From positions 22,692,001 through 22,756,000 of the forward strand of contig OZ024761.1 of NCBI GenBank assembly GCA_964016885.1: a stretch of DNA of 64,000 nt, given 5' to 3'. The position numbers and the translations under genes are program-made. Positions 22,901 to 62,617 of this stretch are shown in pieces. The notes beneath the pieces were generated by a model that did not search any database, had not been told where the DNA came from, and worked only from the letters and a program-made list of their open reading frames with translations. The DNA is from Eledone cirrhosa (lineage: Eukaryota). How positions within the stretch are numbered: position 1 is the first letter of the stretch; every line of letters begins with the position of its first letter.

Positions 22901-25900
22901 TTTGTTTTGCAAACATCTGGTTTCAGGTTCATATGTGTGTTTGTGTGTGTGTTTGTGTTTATCTGCGTGTGTATGTCATCATTGCTGTTAACTGTCTATT
23001 TTCCATGTTGGCATGGGTTAGACAGGTTGTCCTGTACTGAGGCTATAATGTATCACTGTGTGTCGTAAGAAGCAACTAAAATAAATTGTGTGAAGAAAGG
23101 GCATCCAGCTGTAAAACATTACCTCAAAAAAGTCCTTTCTTACCCATGCCAGCATGGAAAAGTTGATGTAAACACAATGGTGGTGGTGATGAATGGAGTG
23201 GGGAGCACGTATAATCTTTAGCAGTAGAGTGATCACTGTACACATGTTTCAGTATTGTTGTACCTCCACAGGTGCTGAATTGACACAGTTATTAAAACAT
23301 TGGATAGAATGCTTTGTAGTATTTATTCCAGCTCTCTTTGTACCCCCCGGCTCACCTATATTGTCAGCTCATCTAAAGTCAGGTGTGTTTTATATACACA
23401 CCTACCTGAAACACCCCACTTCAGTATACTGATTTTTCTGTATTTCATTTTAGGTAATGATGGGTAAATGTAAGCCTGTAAATGAACGGTTGATGTCCAG
23501 TATTGAACCGACCCCTAACTATGACTGTCATGTGGGACTTCAACCATCTCAACCCTCAGATATCCATGTTGTTCAAATGCATCGTTCACAGGTTTGTGGA
23601 GGTCTTCATTTCTTTTTCTTTTTCTTTTTTACATACATCATTGTATGAGTCAATCAAAGTCTGGTATTCCTCACAATAAACACACCCAGTACACTCTGTA
23701 AAGTGGGTGATGATAGGAAGGGTATCTTGTCATAGAAAACCTGCTGAACAAAGGGTCAGGAGGATTCTTCAACTGTGGGACAGCCATATGTAAGCGCAAT
23801 GCAGGTTCTTGCCACATAATTTAATAAAGGCCCTCACATAAAATTGTGATGGTAAGGTTTTAGATAAATGTACACACTTTAAAACATGCAGGTTTATATC
23901 ATAGAAGAAGGGGTCAGTTTCTCATGGTTTCATAACAAAAGGGTTAACAGTTACAGCAGTCCCTGTATGTTTTTTTTTCTCTGAAATAAATGTCAGTTCT
24001 AACCATTTATTCCAGATCTACTTGTACGAATATGATGATGATGGAATGCCTGCATCTCGCCCTCGACACTGTCTTCCTTTTGCTGTGATAACCTATGAAC
24101 GAAAACAAGATACTATTGTACCAGGATCAATTTCAAAATCTATTTATATCTATGAACCCTCTAAATGTCCTCCACCAGGCAAGAAATCTGATGAGAAAAA
24201 TGATTATAATAAAGGCCCTCGACAGCCAGCTCCTTTCAAAAATGCTTCAAATAGCCTTGAACCTCCGAATCGAATGCTTCCAGGAATACGACCACCTCTG
24301 CTAGGTCCGGGCTTACAAAACATGCTTCCGAATATTTTTCCTCAAGACGTTGACAGCGGAGCAAACGAACAATGCGGCCGGATGCTGGCGAGTTTGTTCC
24401 TAGGATACGGGCAGCAGGCCATCATGCCGGAAGTTCCTCAGAAAGTCCTAGTCCAGAGATCCGGGTCAGATCCGAGGATGAAATACCGTCAAGATCAAAC
24501 GACGGGTCCTTTTGATATGGAACTTTGCCCCCCACTGCCTTTTCCTCCCCCTCCTCCTCCTCCTCTTCCTGTAGATAATCTCATCTTCTCCGTGGAAAAC
24601 AACGGACAGTACAAACCCCAGTTTTACACCGAAGAGCTGAAACCGGACATGAGTCACATGTGGGATCCCTTGAACCCGATGCAAGGATACACCAACGAAC
24701 CCCCGACCGACCAAATGAACTGGTTCTCCCTTCCGGATAGTCGGCCCCTGTTGCAGAATGAAGTTGATCCACAGTGCTTAGGGGACCAGCATCCGTGGAA
24801 GTGTGGTAAAGAAGATACCGCCTTAAACATGGCTGCTCCCCCTAATCAATATGAAGTTAATTCCATAAGCAAGCCTACAAACACCGAGTGGAAAGCAAGT
24901 GGCTCAGAATATTTTGAAAATATAGATTGGAGAATTAACAGCTATCTAAACTGTGATAATAAAATAACAACTGCTTCCAGCAATATATTACCCAACAGTG
25001 GCACCATTAATTCCTCTTGTGATATGTCCAATAATAATAATGATAATGATGACAGTGCTAAAGCTAAAAAGTCAATACCATTTGCTTTAAACAAGAAAAA
25101 ACCAGCCAATTCCAATACCAATTCTAACAGTGAAACAAAAGTCTCTGAGAAGAAAAGCCCTGAGATCGAACTACAAGAGGAAAAGACTGTGATGGATCTT
25201 CTAGATAGATTGCCGACTGTTAAGAAAGAGTCATCTCCCTACGATACAGATGGACACAAAAAGTTTACTACTACTGCTACAAAGAGCCTATATAAATCTT
25301 CGTTACCCGTCTCAAAGAATCTCTCTGAATCGGAGCTGCTCAAGAAAGGCTCCAGCAAAACATCGGAGAATGTTAGCTCAGCTAAAGCACATCCAAAGAT
25401 GACTAAGACTTTGTCGGAGGTGGAGAGTTCCACTAAGGGAGAAGACAGCCTCCTACATGAAATTATGACACAGTTGTTGAGCTGCCAAGAAAATGATCTG
25501 GAGCCCATATTTAATAAAAAGTCTTTCAAACTGAAGAATAAGAAATCTGATGAGCCTACCAAGGTATTGTTTTCTTTTAACACTTTCGTAACAATAATTC
25601 TTTCTATGTCAATTAATTAATGAAGAATTTTGACTAATTTACTAAGAATATTAATTAATTCATGACTAAGATTGTAACTGAACATATGTTTCTTATAAAA
25701 GATTATGTTGAAAGATTTTAATTTAACCGTTCTTGACAATATTTCTAATAAAATACTCTCTTATTTCTTTCAATTACTTAATGAAGAATTTTGAGGGATT
25801 TACTAAAATGATTATTGCATTATTAAGATGGTAACTTAGTATGTTTCTTACTTGATACTTGGGGTAGTAGGGTGTGGTAATATGAAGGATTTGGGACCCT

Positions 25901-29168: not shown

Positions 29169-32100
29169 TTATATATATATATATAAATATAAAAAATCTT
29201 TATAAGATATACAAAAATTAATGTTAGCAAAGCCTGTTTTCTCTGTATTGGATTATCAAAACATTTGTTGTTTGGTTAAATTGTTTACCCTTCTAAGGTC
29301 AATAAAATAAAGTACCAGTAAACTACTAGGATTGATTTATTTGCCTCCCCTTTCTAAATCCGCCCCGAAATATTACTGCTATTGTGTCTAAATTAGAATT
29401 CATTATTTTTTTGTTTTTGCATATTTTAGATTACGAGTCATTTGAAAAGAGAAGGCACCTCTAGCGTGATGAATTGGATCGGAAGTCACCAGGACCTAAT
29501 GAATGCTTTAAACATTCCAGATCAATCATCAAATACTGAATCCTATTCTAAATCTCTTTCGTCAGCCACCAAAACTGAATCAGCAATAGGGGCCAAATTA
29601 GCTAAAATGATCCCCAAAACGTCTCCCGTTCCTAAGGCAGACTTTGAAGAATTTGGTTCCACAATCGACATTACGTCTCTGAAAAATGATGCCAAAAGAA
29701 AATTTGCCAGTAAATATGAAAAAGTCAATAAACAATTGAAAAACTCTTCGGGAGATTCCTTAAAACGGAAGATCAAATTATCCAAAGACAAATTCTCTCT
29801 TAAGAGTGCTCCCTTGAAGGAGAAGATCTCTACAGATAAAAAGGGGTCGCTGACTTCAGTGTCTTCTTCAAAACCTGACAAAGAGAAGAAGGCATTTGTT
29901 CCAAGCAAGAAACCAACCACAAATACATCATCATTATCATTATCATTATCATCATCATCATCATCATCATCACTTCAAGGCAAAAGTAATTCAAGTGTTC
30001 CTGCTAAATCTACGACTTCTACTTCTATTTCTACTTCTGCTACTGCTACTGCTTCTACCACTGCTGTTCCAAAAAGCATCATGAAAATCCCCCGAACAGC
30101 TGAGCCCCTGCCAAAAGGCACTGGCAAACCTCCTTCCAGCTTCCCGGCTACTGACCAATCTTTGAAAGTTGATCTCCTCCTTGACTCAATTATTGAACCT
30201 CCCACCCCTCCTGTTGTTGTATCAGAAACGAAGAAGCCCAAATCCGTCATATCTTTTGAAGCTTACAAGGAAAAACGCTTAAAACCCAAATCTCCACCCC
30301 GGGAAAAGATGAATGTTTTCGACTCATTACAAGATTTCTTCCCAGCAGAAAAGGAACCACCAATGTTTGACAAACCAAAGACAGAGAAACCTGTTTTGGA
30401 ACCCCCGCCTCCCAAAGAGCCTGAGCTAAATAATTTGTTCAGCACTTTGGCTGCTCCCACTAATTACCGTGACCCAAGGCTGGCCACCTCTCAAAAAGAA
30501 CTCCCACTTCCAAAGATACCTCTTCCGTTGATGAAGATCCCTCTTCCCTTGCCAAAGGTTATTCCTCCTTTAATGAATATGAACCCAATATTACCGCTGG
30601 GTCTCCCACCTCTGTTGCCTGGAAATCCACCTTTGCTCCCATTACTAATGCCACCAATAACAAAACCACCCCCAATATTAAAAGGTGCAACTCAACTGAA
30701 TAAATCTACCCCACAGTCTCCCAAAATTATTCCCCAGTCCCCTACAATTATTCCATCATCCAACAAGACATCCCCTTCTTTAAGGGATGACCCGAAAATA
30801 TTTCCTAAAAATAAACCTTCGTCTAAGAAACCTCCTCCCTCTTCCACTCTCCCTAAAACTATACCTACTTCAGTGACAGTCTCTCTAAAGGACCCTAGGG
30901 AACAAGTTTGCCTTGTTGACCCTCGGCTTGCTAAAAACCCTTCCTTGGCTGCCTCTAAAGGTTCACCTTCACAACCTCAAACATCACAAGATGTACATTC
31001 ATCAAAAGAGGAGCCTGTACATGACCCTTCTCTACCGAGGGATCCAAGACTTTTACGTATGAACAGAGATTTGTTGGGTACAACTCCTTCGACAACCGAT
31101 GCCAACAAACCCGTCAAACCTCTCCTTTTACAGGAACCTTGTCCAGATATATATAACCCTATAAAGATAAACAGTGAGGATATTGAGGACGTATCTGCAC
31201 ATCCTGGTCAAGATTTGACAGGTTCCTCTAAAACAGTTATCAACAAAAAGCCTTGGAACCTCTGTGTCATCCAAACATCAGTTGATAAACCTAAACCAAC
31301 CTACGGACCAAAACAGCCATCAGCAATCCCCACCAACAAAGACATCATGCCTGCAATTCCCAAACTTCCTCAAGAACTAAAGTCAGAAAGTTCCAAAGAC
31401 AACCTCCCAGACTATGCTAAATTCTCTAAAGAAATCACGAAAGGTTTCAAACCTTCAACAGCCATTTCCCTTGATAAAGAGGAAACATTTTCCCCCGTGT
31501 CACCCGAGAGAAGTGAGGAACCGACCAAGGGGAAGCAGCCTGTTCCTCAGCAAAACGAACCCGGAAACGATAATAAAACGTGGGGCTTCTACAGGGAAAT
31601 GTTACCACGGAAATCTGTATCCGACAACACAAACACAATCTCTGATGAAGATTTGGCACTTTTGGCTTCAAAGCAGAAATCTGGTGGTGGCGGCAAGACC
31701 AAATCAGAGAGGAATAGCAATATGAAAGATTTCTCCCCTGGTCACTGTATGAATATTGACAGTGATGACAGTGACAATTCCAATACGATTGGTGAAGACC
31801 TCACAAAACCGCTGTACATTGATGAAGGTGCTAGTGGTACATCCCACTCAGATAACCGACTGTCCCATATTAAGAAGGTGCTGAGATCTCTCAATGACAG
31901 TGACAGTGATAGTGATGACAGCAGCTGTGATGCAATGAACTGGGGATTGCTGACCACATACCGAAGTGACACACGTAAAACTATGTCTCAAAACCAACCA
32001 AAATCTCGTGGAAACGACAAGAATCTCTTCCAATCCTTAAGCGAAGATTTTGACTCCATTTCTCCGAATGAGCCAATAAAAGATGAAGGCTCGGAGAAAG

Positions 32101-35100
32101 CACCGACGTCTTTGGATATCGGCAAACTGTTCAGTGCCTACGACTACAAGGGGCAGGGAAGGGAGTCGTCGAATGACACGTCTCACATCTGGATGAAGAG
32201 TCTGACCACATTGAGCCAGGCAAAAGCTGTGTCATCATTGAACATATCAGACGAGATGATGGACATTCTGCGTAAAGTTGTGAAAGGAAGTAAAGACAGC
32301 AAGGACAGCAACTCAACCACTGGTGGCTTAAATTGTGATAGAAATAACAAAGACAAACTTAGTGGCGATGACAATGAGAGCAATTCTGTGGCGCAGTCTA
32401 AACATAAGATTGGAGCGGAGGAGAAGGAAGAGGAGGACAGTGTGAAGGGCTGCCCTAGAGGAGAAGAAAAAGAAGAGGAAGAGGCCAAGAAAAATACTGC
32501 CGGTTCCAATACAGCCAACACCAAAAAGCAATCATTAAGTGAAATGTATAGTCCAACTCACTCCACCATGGACGATATTGATGACGAAATGGAAGGGTTT
32601 ATGTCAGGGAGGGCTATACCTGTCATTAAATCGACCAAACAGAGAACGTTATCAAAATCTGTGAAAAGATCCAGATCTCAATCACCCACATCGTTCTCTC
32701 CATTAAATCTCTTCCCTCCACCAAATTGGCTTCCCACCACACAGTCACCTTTCATGGTATCTCCGAACCCATTGAAGAATATAGACTGGTCAATTCCACC
32801 TCCTAGCTCACCGTTGACCAATTCCCTCCAATCACAACAATTCCTCTGGTCATCCACACTCAGTATGTCTCACTCCCTGCTTGCCAAGAATATACCTTTT
32901 CCTGTTGGGTTTCCAAAGCCAGGCGTATGTGCCACAAACCCTCTTCTAATGAACAGACCCATAAACCCTTTGATGGTCCCCAAACCAACAGATTTAGCCG
33001 ACTGGTTTGCTGACAAGATCAACCCCAAAAAACAGGCATCATCTGTAAATGTTAACCAACCATCATCATCATTATCATCAGTTCCTGTTAATAGACTCGT
33101 GACTGAAAGTAGATCACAATTCGAAAATAAATCCAAAGATACAGGTTTAAATCAAGATTTAAAAGAAAGAAGTGCTGCTTCTGTTGATTCTGAAAATGCA
33201 GTTCATGGAATTTCTGAGCTGCAGTCTCTCTCTAAAGATCAGGAGAAAGAAAGAAGTGAACTGAGCAGGTCTTCTTGTTACAGTCCAACTGATAAAACTT
33301 TGGAGCTTTCCTCATTGTCTTGTGTTGACCATTCACAGTCATCGGAATCTTCAAAAGATGGATTAGCCGAAAAGGCTGACAATGTTAAAATGAAGAAATC
33401 TTCCTCGAATGAGCTGTTTGTACCTTCAGTAAAAGTGGAATCTTCCTCTCATAACAAGGCAATGTCAGAGTCAAGCCAGAAAACCTCTAGAAAAGTACTG
33501 AGTTCTTTAAAAGGTGACGATTGTGATGTCTCTGTTAATAATGAGAAGATTAATGACAATAATACAGCTTCTGGCATGCTGAAGCGGAGTTCTGATGAGC
33601 GAATGTCCTCCACTGAATGTGCGGACACCTCTCAGGAAGCAGATCCACTCTCCGATAGTATGGTATCAGATGATATCAACAGTGAAGTCTCCAAACTTTT
33701 ATCATATATGGGCGCCAAGAAAAGACGAAGTAGCAAGGACAGAAGCAAGTCTTCAAGCAGTTCTTCGAAGAGTAAACACTCCAAGAGAGACAAGCACGAT
33801 GATGCCTCACGCCTCATACCAAAGTCTGTCCAGATATCAACAATTAATTCGAGAAAACTGAAAGAAGCATCTTTGCCAGAGTCTAACAGAAAACTTCTCA
33901 AAGAGCTGGCCAAACAGTTTTCTAAACGGAAGCACAAGTCTGACCTGCAGGCTCTACTGGAATCGGTGAAGAAGATAAAAAAAGAACTGGCTTCACAGCC
34001 TCCCGAACACAAGGAAGACCATCCGTCGTCAGGAGGAAAGATATCCGATGCGGGTGATAAAGCCGAGAGGGTCGTGTGGGTGAACAAGAAGGAACAGCAG
34101 AAGTCAGGCAGCAAAAGATCATCCAGTGAAAAAAGTTGCGGAAGATCAAAACATCATAAACCATTGGATAAGAAATGGTCGGATAATCTTTGGAAACCTG
34201 TGAAGGAAGTAGTGGAGGAAAAGAAACCACGAAGCAGTGATGCTGCTCTGATAGTGATAAACTATAAACAGAAGGGGGTTAGTGAGAAGACAGTAGAGGA
34301 GTATAGTAAGACTAAGACAAGTAATAGCAGCAAGTCTAAAGAGTCGGGAGACAAAGAAGAAGGAGAAGATAGCGGTGAGGTAGAGAAGAAGGAAGAGGAA
34401 GGTGGGGATTCTGAACTGGAAGAAGGAGAACTACCTGACGAAGACGACGAAAGTGACAATAACAATGAAAAGGAAAGATACGAGTCAATAAGACAGTCGG
34501 AATCATTTGAGAGTTTCCCAGGGGAGAGATGGTGGCTTGACAAACGGGACCACCCGAATGATGACAGGTTCTTTGAGCCTAATCAAAGTAGACCACCAAG
34601 AGACATACCGTGGGATATGGAAAATAAACCTGAAGACTTTCGACATCCCCACATGGATAACTATTCCATTGAACAACCGGAAGGATACTCCCGGGAATGT
34701 TTTCCGCTGAAGAGAGGCGAGCCATTCCCACACAACAGCATGGACAACTATCCTTTCCAACCACCTGAAGGTTATTCAATGAATTTGGTGGATAATTATC
34801 CACCAGGAGATGACGATAATTTTCAATACAACAGGCCTGAAGATGGCCCACACAACCAGATGGACAATTTCCCCCGAGGCCGGCCCGATGGTAACATGCG
34901 AGGTCAATCTAAGAACTACCACGGGAAACGTGGCCCTTTCTCCCATGGTGGGAAATTTGCTCCTTTCCTTCCAAACAAAATGGGTAGCTGCATGCCAGAA
35001 GATTCTAATAACTTTGAAATGGAATCCGAGGAACATAAAAAGTTTCCCAGAGGAAAACCTGAAAATCTTCTCCAAAGAGGAAAGGCAAACAAAAGAACGA

Positions 35101-38100
35101 GAACGAGAACGAGAACGAGAACAAGAACGAGACGTCGCACATTTAAGAAACACGAGCCGTCCCATAATCCAGGCGATTATTGTCAGGATAAAAATGATGG
35201 ATTCCTCTACGAGAAAGCTGACAACTACTTTTTTGATAAAGGTTTCCAATATAATCAGCCAGAGAATTTCTTCCTTGGCAACAATGGCGGTGGTTATGGA
35301 CCTGATAAGGGAGAACCTTTTAACTGTGATAATGATCAGATGGGGCCTATAGCCCCCAATTTCAATCAGTTTATCAACCCCTGGCATCCCAATGAAATGG
35401 AAGGCAACAACATGTTACGGTTTCCCAAACATGGGAAGAGCGTTTTCGACAGACTTTCTATCAAGGATACAAAGTTGGAAGTGGGTGGAAGGGGTTTCAG
35501 AGGTAAACATCCGTTCCCTGGTGATGCCCCCTCTCACTTAGAAGACGGCTCAATTCCTTTCTCTAATAGCAAGAAGAAAAAGCTCAAGCCAGACAAGGAT
35601 GACATAAGCTATGATGAACTGCTGGAACAAACAGCGAAGCAGTTGAAAGAACCCCTTGAGGAAGAAGATGAAAAGAAGTCCTGCTCGTTTGAAACCATCG
35701 ATGAATATGTCCAGATGTTTGTTGAACAAGGTTGTAGTGAATACAACATTATAAAGAAGGTGCTCGGCGTATCACTGGACACACGCTTTGATACCATGTC
35801 GAAAACACGAAGGAAAAAGATTCGGAAGAAGATACAGAGTCAGTTACAGGCCCTAAAACAGGCCCCAACAATTAACAACGACAACGAAATACCAGGTCCT
35901 TTTGGTAAGATACCACCTTTGTCTTCTGTTGCTTCATCTTCAGAACCAGCACCTTTCAATTTAGATCTCATTCCTGGCTATAGTTCTTTGAAGTCGATGT
36001 CTGATTCCATAGAATTCTTGCAGAACATAATGTGGTTAAAACAACGGTCAGATGATGATTTAGTCCACCATTCCCAGTCGTCTTCTGAGACGCCGGATGA
36101 CTCCGATGATGAGGGAAATAATACAAGCGATGTGGGCCTGCCGGAGGATGCTGATATCCAAGACCCCGAAATCAGGCGTGCTGTGCATAAAGTTCGGGTG
36201 AACATGATCTCAGCTGGCAAAAGAAACGGCATGGGAATTCCGCACCAGAAAATTCCCCTTAGTCTGCTATTGGCTGAAGAAAAAGACAGTCTTTACTCAT
36301 CTGAAGGCTGCTTTCTTATTCTGATGCGAAAGATTCCTCCCAAGTCCGTTGAGCGTTTGGTAACGCTACGAGAGGTGCTTGATCATATCAATTGTGAGAT
36401 GCATCTAGCACAGAAGACCAACGACGCACCAAAGTTTCAGACTTTACAGGCAACCAAAATGAATCTACACGAGCGGCGTAAGTGTGTCCTAGAGAAGTTC
36501 ACTGGCCTCCTCAATAAGAAACGTCTACGGTTAATAGACAAAGCCTGTAAGAAATACCAGTGCTGTCTGGACTATATGAATGCTAATCCCGATTCACTGA
36601 AAAATATAGACAAGGAATTTGTTGTGAAGAGTGTGAAAGCCATCCAAGGGCACAGAAGCACTGTTAAAAATATCCTTGTAAGTCTTAATGTGTTTCTTGT
36701 CTGTGTTTTTATTAAAGGATTTGGGGCAGGTGTGTAGAGGGTTGGTTGTTTAGTGAGTTGGTCATAGGGTTATTTACTCCAGTAAATACCACTGCATGCC
36801 AACCACTAATTTAATTTGAAAGAAGAACTTTTATGTAATTTTCCTTGGTTAGAATTATCTCTCTACATTCGAAGTAATAATTGAAGCATGACGAATATCT
36901 CAAAACGAGTGTCAATAACAATTCGTATTTATTGTAGTGCGTGCATTTCAATTTGGTAACAAAACGTACCCTGTTAGATGATAGAAGTGTAATCCTGAAA
37001 TATAAGATAGGATTAGAAAAAGCTTAACATATTTGTGCTCGGTGTGAGGGTGTACTGGGTGTAATTTATCATGACACCAACACTACCACTTTACAGAGTG
37101 TACTGGGTGTATTTTATCCTGTTACCAGTAACACCACCTTACAGGGTGTACTGGGTGTATTTTATCCTGTCACCAGTACCACCTCTTTACAGAGTGTACT
37201 GGGTGTATTTTATTTTGTCACCAGTACCACCTCTTTACAGAGTGTACTGGGTGTATTTTATCCTGTCAGCAGTACCACCACTTTACAGAGTGTACTGGGT
37301 GTATTTTATCCTATCGCCAGCACTACCACTTGTACAGCAAGATACAACTATATACTAAATATACTAGAACATAAATAAACTGAAATTCTGAGATAATCTT
37401 TTAACTATTATTACTTATGTTTGACATGTCTAATTTCAAATCATGACTTTCTTTTCTTATTATTTCCAGGAAAACAAGGACTGTAATATTCCACCACCAC
37501 CTCCACCTCTTCCTCCTCCTCCTCACTTACTCCCTAACAACCAGATGCCTGTAGGCATGACCAACCCAGGTTTGTAATATTCATTATTTCTGTAAGGATG
37601 TCTTACAATTTATCAACTAGTAAAGATATCATCATCATCAGGTTTAGCGTCCGTGTTCCACGCTTGCATCGGTTTGGACGGGGGTTTTCCCACTTGAGGC
37701 AAGAGTGGTTGTCTTGCTCGTATAGGACTGTCTGGCGGGTTTTCTACAGTTGGATGCCCTTCCTAACACCAACCACATTTACAGTGTGGGGCTGGGAGGT
37801 TTTTACCGTGTTGCCTACACGGCCACATTTACAGCGTGGACTGTGTGTTTTTTGTCGTGACACCTACACGATCTCATTTGTTTCGGCCTGGATGTTGTGG
37901 GACCAACATAAAAACATTTGAATTAACAAAACTATTTTTAGAGATATTTCTGTTGAATCATTACGAGATGTTAAGATGGTATTTTACATTGGAACATAAC
38001 TTAAGAAAAGGTTTTTATATCAAATTATCATCATCATCATTATTTTACGTCCGCTTTTCCCTGCTTGCAGGATTGGTCCTATTCAGCACAGCATCTCTCC

Positions 38101-38920
38101 ACTTGTCATGGTCCTTCGTCAACTCCTCTCAGCTTGATCTGAGGTCTGCTCTCACCACCTCCGCCCATGTTTTTCGTGGTCTTCCTCTACTGCGTCCTCC
38201 TTTTACTGGGATTTCTTGGCACTTCTTTACCCAGCAGTCATCCTCCATGCATCTCACATGTCCATACCATCTCAGTCTTCTCTCCTGCACACTACAAATT
38301 ATCCCTCTTATACCCAGTTTCTCTCTCAACTCGTCTATGCTTGGTCATTCATGTACATTGACATTGCACATCCAACGGAGCATGCTTGCTTCATTTCTCT
38401 CCAGCCATTGCATATCCTCTGCAGTTGCTGCCCATATCTCACTACCATGCAGCATTGCGCATCTCACACAGGCATCATATAACCAGCCTTTCGTACACAG
38501 GGAGAAACCGTTCTTTGTCAGCAGAGGAAGCAGCTCCCTAAACTTCTTCCAACCCGTCCTTATTCTAGATACTATGACCTCGGACCCCCCCCCCCCTCCC
38601 TCACGTTGAAAGATTTTTATTTAGATAGCACCCTTTTAAAATGAGTGGCTTTGTTTGATGAAAGTAGAGCCAGCTTTATTTGGGTTAGGATGAAAAGAAT
38701 TAAGTATTTCTCTTTAATCTTTTTTTTGTATTTTAATTTATATATTAATTAATTATTTTTCTTTAATCTTTTTTTGTGTAATTAATTCATATATTAATTA
38801 ATTTTCTTTTCTTTATCTTCTACAGATGCCTTCCGATGTGAATCGTCTATGAATGGCCTGGAGTTCCAAAAAGCCCTCCGTTTCCTTGTTTCAAATTGTC
38901 AAGACAACTATGGTCCCTAA
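19906..38920 (+). CDS. TASOR: TASOR/FAM208-like (DUF3715 pseudo-PARP) protein, ~3612 aa; join(19906..19966,20488..20638,21819..21967,22699..22802,23454..23591,24016..25563,26095..26313,27578..28603,29430..36677,37470..37569,38826..38920)
   Basis: The spliced N-terminus FNIPK..EIDPKSRDAKEVL..SRSYLD..VRNTELEQLY..RTELKDEGRHSREL..GVYLSKHAD..VMMGKCK..IEPTPNYDCHV..QIYLYEYDDDG..RPRHCLPFAVITY follows the recalled human TASOR DUF3715 motif order (FQIPRK..SREF..SYL..NELLE..RELK.DGR..GVYLSRYAD..IMKGK..DPTPKHECHV..QYYFYEY..RPRHVCPYAVV). All introns are GT-AG with matching phases; total 10839 nt. In-frame stops just upstream of ATG 19906 fix the start. Orthology to TASOR versus TEX15 is not resolved. Confidence 0.8.
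20020..20430. repeat. ~40-bp degenerate minisatellite
   Basis: tagggtttactagagctgttgtga..taaacatatga. Confidence 0.8.
20488..20638 (+). CDS. TASOR: TASOR-like coding exon 2
   Basis: tttcAG|AC..; DNLLEIDPKSRDAKEVLANVSRSYLDQ..LEQLY; donor AG|gttggt. Confidence 0.88.
20657..21282 (+). mobile_element. TTAA-type MITE family B fragment carrying a 20/21-bp minisatellite (20688-21240)
   Basis: TTAA|CCCTTTCAATACCAACC..; flanks of the array match the unexpanded copy at 10353-10453; unit gaaattacctttggttt(t/at)at, ~27 copies. Confidence 0.6.
21819..21967 (+). CDS. TASOR: TASOR-like coding exon 3
   Basis: ttccAG|G; NKRTELKDEGRHSRELTDQIAFCAIRD..NGLSTNNLPFSVI; donor G|gtaagt. Confidence 0.88.
22178..22597 (+). 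mobile_element. piggyBac-type MITE family A, complete, ~3.5 x 72-bp units
   Basis: TTAA|CCCTTTAGCATTTA ... TAAATGCTAAAGGG|TTAA. Confidence 0.85.
22699..22802 (+). CDS. TASOR: TASOR-like coding exon 4
   Basis: tttcAG|GT; GDHNSGVYLSKHADVSL..ALFVFN; donor gtaagt. Confidence 0.88.
23454..23591 (+). CDS. TASOR: TASOR-like coding exon 5
   Basis: ttttAG|GTA; VMMGKCKPV..IEPTPNYDCHV..HRSQ; donor gtttgt. Confidence 0.88.
24016..25563 (+). CDS. TASOR: TASOR-like coding exon 6 (end of DUF3715 plus Pro-rich region)
   Basis: tccAG|ATC; IYLYEYDDDGMPASRPRHCLPFAVITYE..; 516 open codons; donor AAG|gtattg. Confidence 0.88.
26095..26313 (+). CDS. TASOR: TASOR-like coding exon 7
   Basis: tacAG|AAA; KYSLNKLSIDDLKKLKDYV..DYTE; donor gtaagt; phase 0/0. 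Confidence 0.8.
26608..27364. repeat. 35-bp minisatellite, ~21 copies
   Basis: ctctagattctcagtaatcccttcaccaacaaccc. Confidence 0.95.
27578..28603 (+). CDS. TASOR: TASOR-like coding exon 8
   Basis: ttttAG|GAA; 342 open codons ending VKLNDCIKQ; donor gtgaga. Confidence 0.85.
29430..36677 (+). CDS. TASOR: TASOR-like coding exon 9 (7,248 bp)
   Basis: ttttAG|ATT; 2416 uninterrupted codons; donor CTT|gtaagt. Confidence 0.9.
37044..37332. repeat. ~48-bp minisatellite (SINE-derived), ~6 copies
   Basis: ctttacagagtgtactgggtgtattttatcctgtcaccagtaccacc. Confidence 0.85.
37470..37569 (+). CDS. TASOR: TASOR-like coding exon 10 (poly-Pro)
   Basis: ttccAG|GAA; ENKDCNIPPPPPPLPPPPHLL..TNP; donor G|gtttgt, or read-through to TAA at 37575-37577. 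Confidence 0.72.
38027..38582 (-). mobile_element. RTE-clade LINE 3' fragment
   Basis: Minus-strand translation REKLGIRGI..VQERRLRWYGHV..GGRSRGRPRKTWAEVV, then a short 3'UTR and (ATG)n tail. Confidence 0.85.
38826..38920 (+). CDS. TASOR: TASOR-like terminal coding exon 11
   Basis: Long polypyrimidine tract plus tacAG; phase-1 join gives DAFRCESSMNGLEFQKALRFLVSNCQDNYGP*. Confidence 0.62.
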
Positions 38921-39264
38921 TCACAGATCTCTGTCTCCCATCAAGTTATCTGGGGAGACCAGCAGTTGATGATAACTTTACAGCAGGATTACACCAGCAG
39001 GAAATTCTGTCTAACAAATGACACATTTAAAAAAAAATGTTATTGAACATCTGTTCACTTTGTCACCCTCTATCTCTTGATACCAGTAATACTACTAGGG
39101 TGTGTTCAAATGCCTATTTTTTACCTTTTAAACATGGTCTTCCTTCCATTTTATTTATTGCATTTTTTTTTTCACTCTCATTTCTACCGATTCTTTCATT
39201 TTACTGTTATGATGATGATGATGATGATGATGTCTATGACAGATGTAAACCTCAGACATTAACA

Positions 39265-45257: not shown

Positions 45258-46696
45258 TCTCCCCCTCTCTATATCTACTACACGGAACTCTCTTCCAGTA
45301 CCCCTCTCTATATCTACTACACGAAACTCTCTTCCAGTACCCCTCTCTATATCTACTATACGAAACTCTCTTCCAGTACCCCTCTCTATATCTACTACAC
45401 GAAACTCTCTTCCAGTACCCCTCTCTATATCTACTACACGAAACTCTCTTCCAATACCCCTCTCTATATCTACTGCACGAAACTCTCTTCCAGTACCCCT
45501 CTCTATATCTACTACACGAAACTCTCTTCCAGTACCCCTCTCTATATCTACTACACGAAACTCTCTTCCAATACCCCTCTCTATATCTACTGCACGAAAC
45601 TCTCTTCCAGTACCCCTCTCTATATCTACTACACGAAACTCTCTTCCAGTACCCCTCTCTATATCTACTACACGAAACTCTCTTCCAGTACCCCTCTCTA
45701 TATCTACTACACGAAACTCTCTTCCAGTACCCCTCTCTATATCTACTATACGAAACTCTCTTCCAGTACCCCTCTCTATATCTACTACACGAAACTCTCT
45801 TCCAGTACCCCTCTCTATATCTACTACACGAAACTCTCTTCCAGTACCCCTCTCTATATCTACTACACGAAACTCTCTTCCAGTACCCCTCTCTATATCT
45901 ACTGCACGAAACTCTCTTCCAGTACCCCTCTATATCTACTGCACGAAACTCTCTTCCAGTACCCCTCTTTATATCTACTACACGAAACTCTCTTCCAATA
46001 CCCCTCTCTATATCTACTACACGAAACTCTCTTCCAGTACCCCTCTCTATATCTACTACACGAAACTCTCTTCCAGTACCCCTCTCTATATCTACTACAC
46101 GAAACTCTCTTCCAGTACCCCTCTCTATATCTACTATACGAAACTCTCTTCCAGTACCCCTCTTTATATCTACTGCACGAAACTCTCTTCCAGTACCCCT
46201 CTCTATATCTACTACACGAAACTCTCTTCCAATACCCCTCTTTATATCTACTGCACGAAACTCTCTTCCAATACCCCTCTCTATATCTACTACACGAAAC
46301 TCTCTTCCAGTACCCCTCTCTATATCTATTACACGGAACTCTTTTTCCAATACCCCTCTCTATATCTACTACACGAAACTCTCTTCCAGTACCCCTCTCT
46401 ATATCTACTACACGAAACTCTCTTCCAATACCCCTCTCTATATCTACTACACGAAACTCTCTTCCAGTACCCCTCTCTATATCTACTACACGAAACTCTC
46501 TTCCAGTACCCCTCTCTATATCTACTACACGAAACTCTCTTCCAGTACCCCTCTCTATATCTACTACACGAAACTCTCTTCCAGTACCCCTCTCTATATC
46601 TACTACACGAAACTCTCTTCCAATACCCCTCTCTATATCTACTACACGGAACTCTCTTCCAATACCCCTCTCTATATCTACTGTACGGAACTCTCT
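45258..46696. repeat. 39-bp minisatellite, ~37 copies
   Basis: ctctctatatctactacacgaaactctcttccagtaccc. Confidence 0.95.
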
Positions 46697-46699
46697 GCC

Positions 46700-47080
46700 A
46701 CCGCCCCCTGTGTGGCTGAAATGGGATTTCCCCGAAGGGTCTTTGGCGTGAGGTTACTCGATAGAGTGTGTGTAGCTCGGGAGATGAGAGAGTCACTCCA
46801 GGTAGAGCCTCTACTTCTCTGAATTGAGAGATCACAGCTCTGATACTATGGACATGTGGTTAGAATGTCTCAGGAAAGATTTTACGGGCAAAAACCAACA
46901 GGCAGGAGACCCACTCCCGAGCAAGATGGTTGGATAACACTCATGAGCTCGGTTGGTCACGCTTGGGAGATCAAGCCGGATCAATTGGAGACGGTTGCTT
47001 CTGACAGGACCCACTGGAGGGGGTGTTTGGGGACTCTGCCCCTACGACCCTCTCAGGAATAAGACGGAGGAGGGGGAGGA
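46700..47080 (+). mobile_element. RTE-clade LINE 3' fragment
   Basis: AEMGFPRRVFGVRLLDRV..RESLQVEPLLL*IERSQL*YYGHVVRM..PTGRRP, degenerate. Confidence 0.75.
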
Positions 47081-49296: not shown

Positions 49297-50262
49297 CGAC
49301 CACTTTAAAGTTAGTACTGGGTGCTTTTTGTCGTGACACCAAGACGACCACTTTACAGTTAGTACTGGGTGCTTTTTGTCATGACACCAAGATGACCACT
49401 TTAAAGTTAGTACTGGGTGCTTTTTGTCGTGACACCAAGATGACCACTTTACAGTTAGTACTGGGTGCTTTTTGTTGTGACACCAAGACAACCACTTTAA
49501 AGTTAGTACTGGGTGCTTTTTGTCGTGACACCAAGACAACCACTTTAAAGTTAGTACTGGGTGCTTTTTGTCGTGACACCAAGACGACCACTTTACAGTT
49601 AGTACTGGGTGCTTTTTGTCGTGACACCAAGACGACCACTTTAAAGTTAGTACTGGGTGCTTTTTGTTGTGACACCAAGACGACCATTTTACAGTTAGTA
49701 CTGGGTGCTTTTTGTCGTGACACCAAGACGACCACTTTACAGTTAGTACTGGGTGCTTTTTGTCGTGACACCAAGACGACCACTTTACAGTTAGTACTGG
49801 GTGCTTTTTGTCGTGACACCAAGACGACCACTTTACAGTTAGTACTGGGTGCTTTTTGTCGTGACACCAAGACGACCACTTTACAGTTAGTACTGGGTGC
49901 TTTTTGTCGTGACACCAAGACGACCACTTTACAGTTAGTACTGGGTGCTTTTTGTCGTGACACCAAGACGACCACTTTACAGTTAGTACTGGGTGCTTTT
50001 TGTCGTGACACCAAGACGACCACTTTACAGTTAGTACTGGGTGCTTTTTGTTGTGACACCAAGACGACCATTTTACAGTTAGTACTGGGTGCTTTTTGTC
50101 GTGACACCAAGACGACCACTTTACAGTTAGTACTGGGTGCTTTTTGTCGTGACACCAAGACGACCACTTTACAGTTAGTACTGGGTGCTTTTTGTCGTGA
50201 CACCAAGACGACCACTTTAAAGTTAGTACTGGGTGCTTTTTGTTGTGACACCAAGACGACCA
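49297..50262. repeat. 48-bp minisatellite (SINE-derived), ~20 copies
   Basis: gaccactttacagttagtactgggtgctttttgtcgtgacaccaagac. Confidence 0.95.
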
Positions 50263-56895: not shown

Positions 56896-58299
56896 CTAAA
56901 TAGAAGAATTTTAGATTATTATGTAGTAAAATAATAATTGTTTCTACAGCAATTACCCAGTACATTACTGGTACTTTATTTTATTGACCCCGTAAGGATG
57001 AAAGGCAAAGTTAACCTCGGCGGGATTTGAACTCAGACCGTAAAGAGACGTAACTATGCTGGAAAGCATGGTGTCCGACCCTCTACCGATACTGCCAATT
57101 CACCGCCCTAGTAAAATAATAATAATAATAATGGTTTCTCTAAAAAAAAAAAAAAGCAACTTACTGTAGTGCTTTCAATTTCGAAGTCTCTTCAGAAGGT
57201 TCCGCAGGTTGGAAGCTAGCTTTAAAGATCATATTCCGTAACTTCTGCATACAGTCAGCTTGGTTCAGGAGCTGTTTACGAGTACGATCTGAGGTTACAA
57301 TAAGGAATCCATTTTTGTTTATTTTGGTGTGGTTCTGTGAAGAGAGAAGACATTTTTTTTTTTTCTTTTTAGTATCAAATCAGATCAATAATTTGAGATC
57401 AATGAACTGTAACCTGTCCAGTTCATACCAGCAAGGGAAACATGAAAAAACAATGATGATGATAAAGATAGTACCTAACTGTCTGAAATCATATATATAA
57501 TACTGAGCTTCATAAATGTCAACAAATCTGCTCAAAATACTGAACTAATTCAAAATACTGAACCAATTCAAACTACTGAACCAGCTCAAACTACTGAACC
57601 AGCTCAAACTACTGAGCCAGCTCAAACTACTGAACCAGCTCAAACTACTGAACTAATTCAAACTACTGAGCCAGCTCAAACTACTGAACCAGCTCAAACT
57701 ACTGAACTAATTCAAACTACTGAACCAATTCAAACTACTGAGCCAGCTCAAACTACTGAACCAATTCAAACTACTGAGCCAGCTCAAACTACTGAACTAA
57801 TTCAAACTACTGAACCAATTCAAACTACTGAGCCAGCTCAAACTACTGAACCAATTCAAACTACTGAGCCAGCTCAAACTACTGAACCAGCTCAAACTAC
57901 TGAACTAATTCAAACTACTGAACCAATTCAAACTACTGAGCCAGCTCAAACTACTGAACCAATTCAAACTACTGAGCCAGCTCAAACTACTGAACCAATT
58001 CAAACTACTGAGCCAGCTCAAACTTCTGATCCAGCTCAAACTACTGAACTAATTCAAACTACTGAGTCAGTTCAAAGTACCGAGAGGGGTTTGATAAACA
58101 TCAGACAGTCTGATCAAACTACCAACTGATAACCAATAATGGTTCAAATAAGACAACAAGTAATTTAATATTTACCTCTTCTAATATTTTGGTCTTAATC
58201 CTGGAAGATATCCATGATGCAGACTGAAGATGAAAACGTACCTCAACTTTGGTGTTCACTTGAAAAACAGAAGGAAAAAAAACCCCGAGTTAGTTAGAA

Positions 58300-61730: not shown

Positions 61731-62617
61731 ACATTTTTCATGCTCAGAGTTGCTGAAGCATGGAACAAACTACCTGCATCAGTTGTTAGCTGCCGAGACA
61801 CTGCATCCTTTAAAACGTCCATGGAACAAACTACCAGCATCAGTTGTTAGCTGTCGAGACACTGCATCCTTTAAAACCTCCATGGAACAAACTACCTGCA
61901 TCAGTTGTTAGCTGTCGAGACACTGCATCTTTTAAAACCTCCATGGAACAAACTACCTGCATCAGTTGTTAGCTGTCGAGACACTGCATCCTTTAAAACC
62001 TCCATGGAACAAACTACCTGCATCAGTTATTAGCTGTCGAGACACTGCATCCTTTAAAACCTCCATGGAACAAACTACCAGCATCAGTTGTTAGCTGTCG
62101 AGACAGTGCATCCTTTAAAACCTCCATGGAACAAACTACCTGTATCAGTTGTTAGCTGTCGAGACACTGCATCCTTTAAAACCTCCATGGAACAAGCTAC
62201 CTGCCTCGGTTGTTAGCTGTCGAGACACTGCATCCTTTAAAACTTCCATGGAACAAACTACCTGCATCAGTTGTTAGCTGTCGAGACACTGCATCCTTTA
62301 AAACCTCCATGGAACAAACTACCAGCATCAGTTGTTAGCTGTCGAGACACTGCATCCTTTAAAACCTCCATGGAACAAACTACCAGCATCAGTTGTTAGC
62401 TGTCAGGACACTGCATCCTTTAAAACCGCCATGCTTCCCGAGATTTGCCAACACTACACCTAATATTCCCCCTCCATACACACACACACATGTATATCAT
62501 GACTCATACACTGTTCACTTTCCTGACATTTGTACATTATTCTATGTACTATACATGCACCTTTGATGAGTTGTAGTGCACCTGAGCACTGTACACAATA
62601 ATTTCATTATTATTATA
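61731..62617 (+). mobile_element. CR1/L2-like LINE 3' end with internal 11 x 61-bp tandem array (61759-62430)
   Basis: FFMLRVAEAWNKLPASVVSCRDTASFKT..MLPEICQHYT*, then a 3'UTR ending gagcactgtacacaataatttc(att)n. The same tail occurs at 21283-21330. Confidence 0.75.

Follow-up and report, generated by a model that had tools for sequence, protein, structure and literature searches.

A SPOC-less DUF3715 protein of the octopus Eledone cirrhosa belongs to a mollusc family with DPR motifs, an ARS2-type motif and its own C-terminal domain

The 64,000-nucleotide stretch of the Eledone cirrhosa genome analysed here (GenBank assembly GCA_964016885.1, contig OZ024761.1, positions 22,692,001 to 22,756,000 of the forward strand; the window, numbered from its first nucleotide) contains a gene for a large protein with an N-terminal DUF3715 domain, which is also found in TASOR and TEX15. 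Judged from its sequence, this octopus gene is a SPOC-less DUF3715 paralogue and not TASOR. The mollusc family to which it belongs, with an ARS2-type motif and a C-terminal domain, is new, as is a conserved DPR island in TEX15, and the predicted contact of TEX15 with WDR82 is the best lead to come from the sequences. Our preferred, though tentative, reading is that the octopus protein is a HUSH-independent scaffold that would dock WDR82 via DPR and ARS2 via EEGEL, helping to silence nascent transposon or aberrant transcripts. An earlier note on this DNA had listed five DPR motifs, the sequence ISFEAYKEKR (30249–30278) and an EEGEL motif (34419–34433), and all were recovered at these positions, in frame and in one gene. 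A six-frame scan and the spliced model placed the D of the DPR motifs at 24469 (SDPRM), 30471 (RDPRL), 30891 (KDPRE), 30918 (VDPRL) and 31041 (RDPRL). The principal features are as follows.

19906..38923, + strand: gene, 11 coding exons, 3,612 amino acids (aa), modelled by tblastn with Octopus sinensis P0001 as guide
19906-19966, 20488-20638, 21819-21967, 22699-22802, 23454-23591, 24016-25563, + strand: exons 1–6
26095-26313, 27578-28603, 29430-36677, 37470-37569, 38826-38923, + strand: exons 7–11
20488..24105, + strand: DUF3715 (pseudo-PARP / RDTS), residues ~21–231, exons 2–6
24469..24477, + strand: DPR motif 1, residue 353, ~120 residues past DUF3715, in the same place in TEX15 and most molluscs
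30249..30269, + strand: ISFEAYK, family form [IVL][ST][LF]x[AED]Y[KM]
30471..31049, + strand: DPR motifs 2–5, a cephalopod cluster, each present in P0001, with four DPR also in the corresponding part of P0003
34419..34433, + strand: EEGEL, fitting the ARS2-recruitment consensus [ED][ED]GE[ILV] (PMC9402713)
35691..35867, + strand: C-terminal conserved block 1 (alignment), three helices, model pLDDT (predicted local distance difference test) ~74–85, profile matching the family only
36150..36677, + strand: C-terminal conserved block 2, ~175 aa, mostly long helices, pLDDT mostly 82–98, no Pfam family

All introns of the model are GT-AG and the spliced frame has no internal stops. The open frame at 29430–36734 matched three of 7,967 candidate proteins, Octopus sinensis P0001 (67%), O. 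bimaculoides P0002, and P0003 (34%). Splicing was read from contigs of run X4, for which no kind, library or tissue is on record. One contig of 2,736 bases covers exons 4, 5, 6 and 7 and the start of exon 8 consecutively, with the introns skipped, and another of 3,843 bases spans 33400–36678 and then 38823–39197, with 96 bases between them, about the length of exon 10. Along exon 9 the contigs overlap one another by 13–21 bases only, and none of those listed bridges the junction of exons 8 and 9. As the contigs skip introns across exons 4–8 and 9–11, the gene is transcribed and spliced.

The DUF3715 domain was recognised by PF12509 in the O. sinensis orthologue P0001 (E 9e-25, 87.8 bits against a cut-off of 28.5), which is 88% identical to the Eledone model over this region. 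The human TASOR structure 6tl1 was matched at E 5e-26, active PARPs only at E values of at least 0.006, and the domains of the mollusc family align along their whole length with those of TASOR and TEX15. A search for DUF3715 gave 158 proteins (8 long proteins and the best 150 of 359 representatives), which were labelled by profile as SPOC-type (66), TEX15 (27) or sharing the C-terminal domain (16); 49 had no label and none had two. In a Pfam scan DUF3715 was the sole domain of P0001 and of 14 of 15 other relatives, P0046 giving no match. The earlier note had called the protein TASOR-like, a label that holds for the DUF3715 domain and does not extend to the rest of the protein. Neither Pfam nor our own post-domain profile detected SPOC or DomI in the family, and Pfam gave no match for DomII and PIN (PF23314, PF24630). 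The 66 labels given by the post-domain SPOC-region profile included none of the 16 proteins with the C-terminal domain, and Pfam SPOC does score in the mollusc paralogues P0073 and P0083. The TEX15 domain (PF15326) was likewise not found by Pfam or by our own profile (hhalign probability 0.2%).

The profile of C-terminal block 2 matched with E values of 1e-46 to 1e-59, in the mollusc family only, and the predicted fold of the C-terminal region had a mean pLDDT of 74.5. Comparison of the C-terminal blocks with the TASOR alignment gave an hhalign probability of 0.1%, and hhalign found no match between the C-terminal domain and ten other DUF3715 groups. The best structural matches were at E 0.63 in Foldseek and at Z 8.2 in VIA, the latter over a helical hairpin of ~55 residues, with no usable match in Atlas; these negatives need not mean a new fold.

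The named members of the group with the C-terminal domain are all molluscs (Octopus, Solemya, Potamilus, Mytilus, Argopecten, Dreissena, Patella, Lottia, Aplysia, Babylonia and Littorina). In Mytilus edulis this type (P0011) occurs alongside a SPOC-bearing one (P0073), the scallop Mizuhopecten has the SPOC-bearing type, and a third, unlabelled DUF3715 type was found in Sinanodonta and Pecten. By sequence comparison, invertebrates have more DUF3715 paralogues than the TASOR/TEX15 pair. Further SPOC-less DUF3715 lineages, nearly all with DPR, were seen in bivalves, amphioxus and echinoderms (P0074, P0088, P0155; P0023, P0024, P0026; P0141, P0142).

Phylogenetic analysis of the domain placed the mollusc family outside the SPOC-type proteins. 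In a tree of 131 rows, limited to domain matches of 150 to 260 residues and, among unlabelled proteins, to those of at least 700 aa, the SPOC-type branch was supported at 100/99, and in a tree of 45 hand-picked rows, based on ~215 columns, unrooted and with its deep forks unsettled, the SPOC clade was supported at 98/92. Approximately unbiased (AU) tests on the 45-row tree gave p 0.0005 for a grouping of the family with vertebrate TASOR and p 0.0009 for one with lophotrochozoan SPOC-type proteins, rejecting both, and p 0.38 for one with TEX15, which was not rejected. The mollusc family was weakly supported as a single branch (62/20), with 12 of 14 rows together at 92/93. P0014 of the annelid Owenia groups with the family by its DUF3715 and is without the C-terminal domain. 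The family may possibly be orthologous to TEX15, and in layout it is closer to TEX15 than to TASOR. Both it and TEX15 have an N-terminal DUF3715, no SPOC, a long low-complexity body and DPR ~80–200 residues past the domain, whereas the octopus family lacks the TEX15 repeat domain and has an ARS2-type motif, which none of 26 TEX15 proteins has, and an S-x-x-Y motif, which one of them has.

Nearest to the earlier note is the proposal that the gene encodes octopus TASOR, as a subunit of the HUSH core that has lost SPOC yet still assembles with MPP8 and periphilin and has Restrictor-style motifs added. Its domain matches the TASOR structure, and the gene may be the sole DUF3715 gene of the Eledone genome, since no SPOC-type paralogue was found there with three queries (P0059 whole, in a first stricter search, a SPOC-type DUF3715 and the SPOC region). 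The SPOC-type DUF3715 query returned only three exons of the octopus gene itself and the SPOC-region query two weak matches, both with stops. A SPOC-type TASOR has possibly been lost in the Eledone lineage, though bivalves have one. Genome profile searches with PF12509 and with Periphilin_C gave zero matches, the control being silent in both. However, MPP8 binding depends on DomI, and repression on both SPOC and DomI (10.1101/2020.03.09.974832), and neither was detected. Identification as a TASOR orthologue is contradicted by the missing SPOC, DomI, DomII and PIN, the AU rejections and the separate SPOC-type paralogue in Mytilus, and we consider an octopus TASOR very unlikely. DUF3715 and DPR are common to the octopus family and to TASOR, TASOR2 and invertebrate TASOR-like proteins, but the family lies outside the SPOC clade and outside TASOR as delimited by Schopp 2023. 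Vertebrate TASORs also keep a W-x-L-I-P stretch before DPR, whereas the octopus family has no match to W[PG][LIV].

The frequency of the motifs in the octopus protein was compared with that in 5,000 replicates of 100-residue block shuffles of the 3,612-aa model. The five DPR motifs compare with a shuffle mean of 0.87 (reached in 9 of 5,000 shuffles) and the four followed by a hydrophobic residue, which KDPRE at 30891 lacks, with a mean of 0.17 (1 of 5,000). The remaining five orders of the letters D, P and R occur 0, 0, 2, 3 and 1 times. The single [ED][ED]GE[ILV] match compares with a mean of 0.04 (185 of 5,000) and the single match to the S-x-x-Y pattern with 0.03 (139 of 5,000). DPR and [ED][ED]GE[ILV] are published patterns; those for DPR plus hydrophobic and for the loosened S-x-x-Y motif ([IVL][ST][LF]xxYK) were fixed after the relatives had been inspected, so their shuffle values are optimistic. 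By themselves the EEGEL-type and S-x-x-Y motifs appear marginal, and their weight comes from the relatives. The islands common to three cephalopod sequences include DPR at 30918 and 31041, ISFEAYK and ELEEGEL, amongst many others, stretches of 7 residues with 5 or more identical making up 10% of the low-complexity part between cephalopods. The SFxxYK motif of the earlier note is present, but in its strict form it is cephalopod-specific, other molluscs having L for F. Similar short motifs occur in cyclin T1, SETD5 and KMT2E.

Counts for the mollusc family cover 15 proteins, the fragment P0002 being left out, those for the other groups cover proteins of at least 1,200 aa, and expected values are from block shuffles. 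DPR was found in all 15 family proteins (6.5 expected) and DPR plus hydrophobic in 14 (1.5 expected). Nine have an [ED][ED]GE[ILV] motif, positioned just before the C-terminal domain (0.62 expected), and ten the loosened S-x-x-Y motif (0.4 expected). With the two cephalopod rows removed, the counts were 13/13, 12/13, 7/13 and 8/13, respectively. In cephalopods, bivalves and gastropods the motifs, whose conservation among orthologues the earlier note had proposed as a check, are kept as a class and lie far above the shuffled background. DPR is not special to the octopus protein, as it is common to TASOR-like proteins and TEX15, occurring in 24 of 26 TEX15 proteins (4.8 expected), 40 of 51 SPOC-type (16.9 expected) and 18 of 22 unlabelled (7.7 expected); other D/P/R letter orders are much rarer than DPR in DUF3715 proteins. 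The ARS2-type motif was found in two of 51 SPOC-type proteins (1.4 expected by chance) and two of 22 unlabelled proteins, and the S-x-x-Y pattern in one SPOC-type protein. Together with the C-terminal domain, these two motifs set the sequences of the mollusc family apart from TASOR and TEX15. In the scallop SPOC-type protein P0083, six DPR occur along with one DDGEL that fits the ARS2 consensus, and the pair may therefore extend beyond the SPOC-less family.

Chance production of the motifs by a long Pro/Asp/Glu-rich region would fit the per-protein shuffle values of the single motifs (~0.03–0.04) and the missing hydrophobic residue of KDPRE. This explanation is largely refuted by their recurrence in three mollusc classes, TEX15 and TASOR, far above both the block shuffles and the letter-order controls, and we regard it as scarcely credible.

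The motifs match published WDR82 and ARS2 motif patterns, in agreement with the earlier note, and the Eledone genome holds a WDR82 exon, followed by an intron, as well as ARS2 exons. Residues F187 and F237 of Schizosaccharomyces pombe WDR82, which clamp DPR (PMC13710762), align to phenylalanines in cuttlefish WDR82 by hand count on the alignment. The Eledone ARS2 zinc-finger exon has 46 of 51 residues as in human, with lysines at the spacing of K719, K722 and K734 (numbering inferred). Partner surfaces for DPR and EEGEL are present in cephalopods, and their use by the octopus protein is predicted. It is likely that DPR binds the WDR82 pocket and, somewhat less surely, probable that EEGEL binds the zinc-finger leg of ARS2. 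The earlier note had put forward one polypeptide joining a HUSH-type domain to WDR82/ARS2-dependent termination as its best candidate for an undescribed system. A link of HUSH to WDR82 is known, mouse TASOR co-precipitating WDR82, which is needed for TASOR chromatin binding and L1 silencing (PMC10915761), and a contact between TASOR DPR and WDR82 has already been proposed (PMC13710762). No basis was found for NCBP1, which the earlier note had suggested as a motif partner.

The motifs could also be functional with other partners, such as another WD40 protein or another reader, or only some of them may matter. CstF-50 binds a similar DPK motif (PMC13710762), the family favours a hydrophobic residue after DPR, a preference absent from the accessible portions of the cited WDR82 literature, and no binding partner for S-x-x-Y was found in literature searches or among solved structures. 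We nonetheless think this improbable, given that TASOR with the same motif co-precipitates WDR82 and that cephalopods retain the WDR82 pocket.

In the preferred scaffold reading, the protein would ride on WDR82 at RNA polymerase II (Pol II) and contact ARS2 on capped nascent RNA, while its DUF3715 would, by analogy with TASOR and TEX15, probably act in co-transcriptional silencing. The DUF3715 of TEX15 can substitute for that of TASOR (PMC10578480), and Drosophila Ars2 silences germline transposons (PMC12123415). Because no RNA-binding fold was found and the HUSH assembly domains and CCCH fingers are lacking, target recognition would have to be supplied by a partner, which could be a PIWI protein, as it is for TEX15. 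Early termination and hand-off to the exosome may be the outcome, though we suggest this with more reserve than the docking itself.

Several observations weigh against this scaffold reading. Six of the 15 family members (five gastropod proteins and Argopecten) are without the ARS2-type motif and five (gastropod proteins of Patella, Lottia, Babylonia and Littorina) without the S-x-x-Y motif, and Owenia P0014 has three ARS2-type motifs and no DPR. The number and place of DPR differ between mollusc classes and cannot be aligned outside the cephalopods, and the relatives counted share descent and are not independent draws. The octopus model has no CCCH finger (C-x(7-9)-C-x(4-6)-C-x3-H) and no zinc-finger Pfam match, so that Restrictor-like RNA binding is not borne out; the earlier description as a HUSH-Restrictor hybrid was overstated, and a HUSH core is not supported, with no HUSH assembly domains, no CCCH finger and the TASOR grouping rejected. 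DPR is also present in SET1, Symplekin and PCF11, and SET1, which uses it to support expression, has been proposed to oppose Restrictor (PMC13710762, PMC9911701). The ARS2 motif is also present in the productive factors PHAX, NCBP3 and FLASH (PMC9402713, 10.1101/2023.07.25.550453). For these last two reasons the motifs alone leave the direction of the effect unfixed.

The same motif sharing would suit a protein that binds WDR82 and ARS2 but is a general Pol II/RNA-sorting adaptor, or a WDR82 competitor as proposed for SET1, with transposons no special target. Many HUSH sites are H3K9me3-negative (PMC10915761) and the action of mouse TEX15 extends to olfactory receptor genes (10.64898/2026.05.27.728302), both of which are in keeping with such a role. 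On the other side, the DUF3715 proteins for which the cited papers give functional data (TASOR, TASOR2 and TEX15) are repressors and DUF3715 is required for LINE1 silencing (PMC10578480, 10.64898/2026.05.27.728302). We judge this alternative unlikely, though the most serious of those considered.

The octopus protein shares with ZC3H4, which forms Restrictor with WDR82, the presence of DPR and [ED][ED]GE[ILV] in one polypeptide, a match of sequence only. ZC3H4 has CCCH fingers and tandem ARS2 motifs, whereas the octopus protein has a single ARS2 motif and DUF3715, and the likeness is one of motifs alone. DUF3715 is likewise the sole recognised domain of SPOC-less invertebrate proteins named 'TASOR pseudo-PARP domain-containing protein' in UniRef and of the cnidarian 'truncated Tex15 homologs' (10.64898/2026.09.07.749791), to which the mollusc branch adds the conserved C-terminal domain, along with a set of motifs that the accessible part of that paper does not mention. 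No title or abstract describing the mollusc family was found in a search that left most subscription journals and bioRxiv supplements outside its reach, and a tree figure in PMC10578480 may already include these mollusc proteins.

The DPR motif of TEX15, the nuclear effector of silencing by PIWI-interacting RNAs (piRNAs) in vertebrates, lies in a conserved island. An alignment of 25 TEX15 proteins (P0128 was dropped for its split domain match, and one row was identified as bat) had 20 of 700 post-domain columns with at least 70% identity. Twelve of these lie at the domain edge, and the other eight make up the island V-x-T-S-x-x-x-K-D-P-R-L, the sole conserved island beyond the domain edge in 700 residues. 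Amphioxus P0007 has DPR at a TEX15-like distance from the domain. A DPR-WDR82 tether seems to go back to the ancestor of all DUF3715 proteins, and the ARS2 motif occurs in this lophotrochozoan branch and not in TEX15. We found no TEX15-WDR82 link in the literature searched, the accessible portions of the review PMC7619638 naming both in separate passages, and the TEX15 silencing route and the molecular role of DUF3715 proteins are left open in PMC10578480 and 10.64898/2026.05.27.728302. In a wider and rather doubtful extension, the DPR-WDR82 tether would be the ancestral second module of all DUF3715 silencers. Vertebrate TEX15 would then carry out piRNA-guided silencing via the termination machinery of WDR82-PNUTS-PP1, as HUSH does, and the molluscs would have a single chain, fitted with an ARS2 motif and with a novel C-terminal domain, that both terminates and breaks down transposon transcripts with no need of MPP8, periphilin or ZC3H4.

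Three further conserved elements were found in the protein.

19930..19944, + strand: F-x-I-P-K motif, N-terminal to DUF3715, with F.IP[KR][LIKR] in 12 of 18 relatives examined
28124..28160, + strand: D-M-x-G-Y and basic run, a conserved island in 6 of 18 examined (O. sinensis, Solemya, Potamilus, Mytilus, Argopecten and P0012), possibly a nuclear localisation signal
33000..33017, + strand: DWFADK island, present in two cephalopods and four bivalves (6 of the 18 relatives compared)

Within the gene, exon 8 has low-complexity coding insertions at 27820–27900 and 28240–28370 (a Gly-Val repeat and an Ala/Thr run) that are absent from O. sinensis P0001. The very high X4 contig depth at 37425–38627, in the last intron, points to an abundant repeat, and a frame at 38348–38620 on the − strand, without a Pfam match, resembles a fragment of a long interspersed nuclear element (LINE). 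The segment 29430–36677 is a single coding exon of 7,248 bases. Long exons are HUSH targets in mammals (PMC10915761, PMC7619638), and it may be speculated from this that the gene is a target of its own pathway.

Elsewhere in the window, the only informative match among 78 frames was at 57164–57379 (− strand), an exon-sized frame with a weak, below cut-off match to RF-1 (PF00472, E 2e-5). It probably belongs to an adjacent gene that encodes a mitochondrial release-factor-like protein such as ICT1. A 216-codon open frame of an 18-bp repeat at 57479–58126 (+ strand), overlapping the flank of this region on the opposite strand, is probably a coding-like minisatellite. Minisatellite arrays with periods of 20–95 bp were found at 6576–7826, 11817–12533, 17245–19258, 20675–21240, 26609–27364, 45262–46700, 49297–50262 and 61759–62433. 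A 72-bp unit seems to recur at 19369 and 22186, and a 92–95-bp unit at 6576 and 42101.

The host genome is ~3.0 Gb and repeat-rich. If the predictions are true, HUSH and the nuclear piRNA pathway would share a route to the termination machinery, beyond a shared domain, and TEX15 infertility variants would gain a site to inspect, the DPR island, with four residues kept across divergent TEX15. A candidate silencing factor would also be named for a mollusc whose 3-Gb genome is rich in repeats and yielded no SPOC-type TASOR to the queries used.

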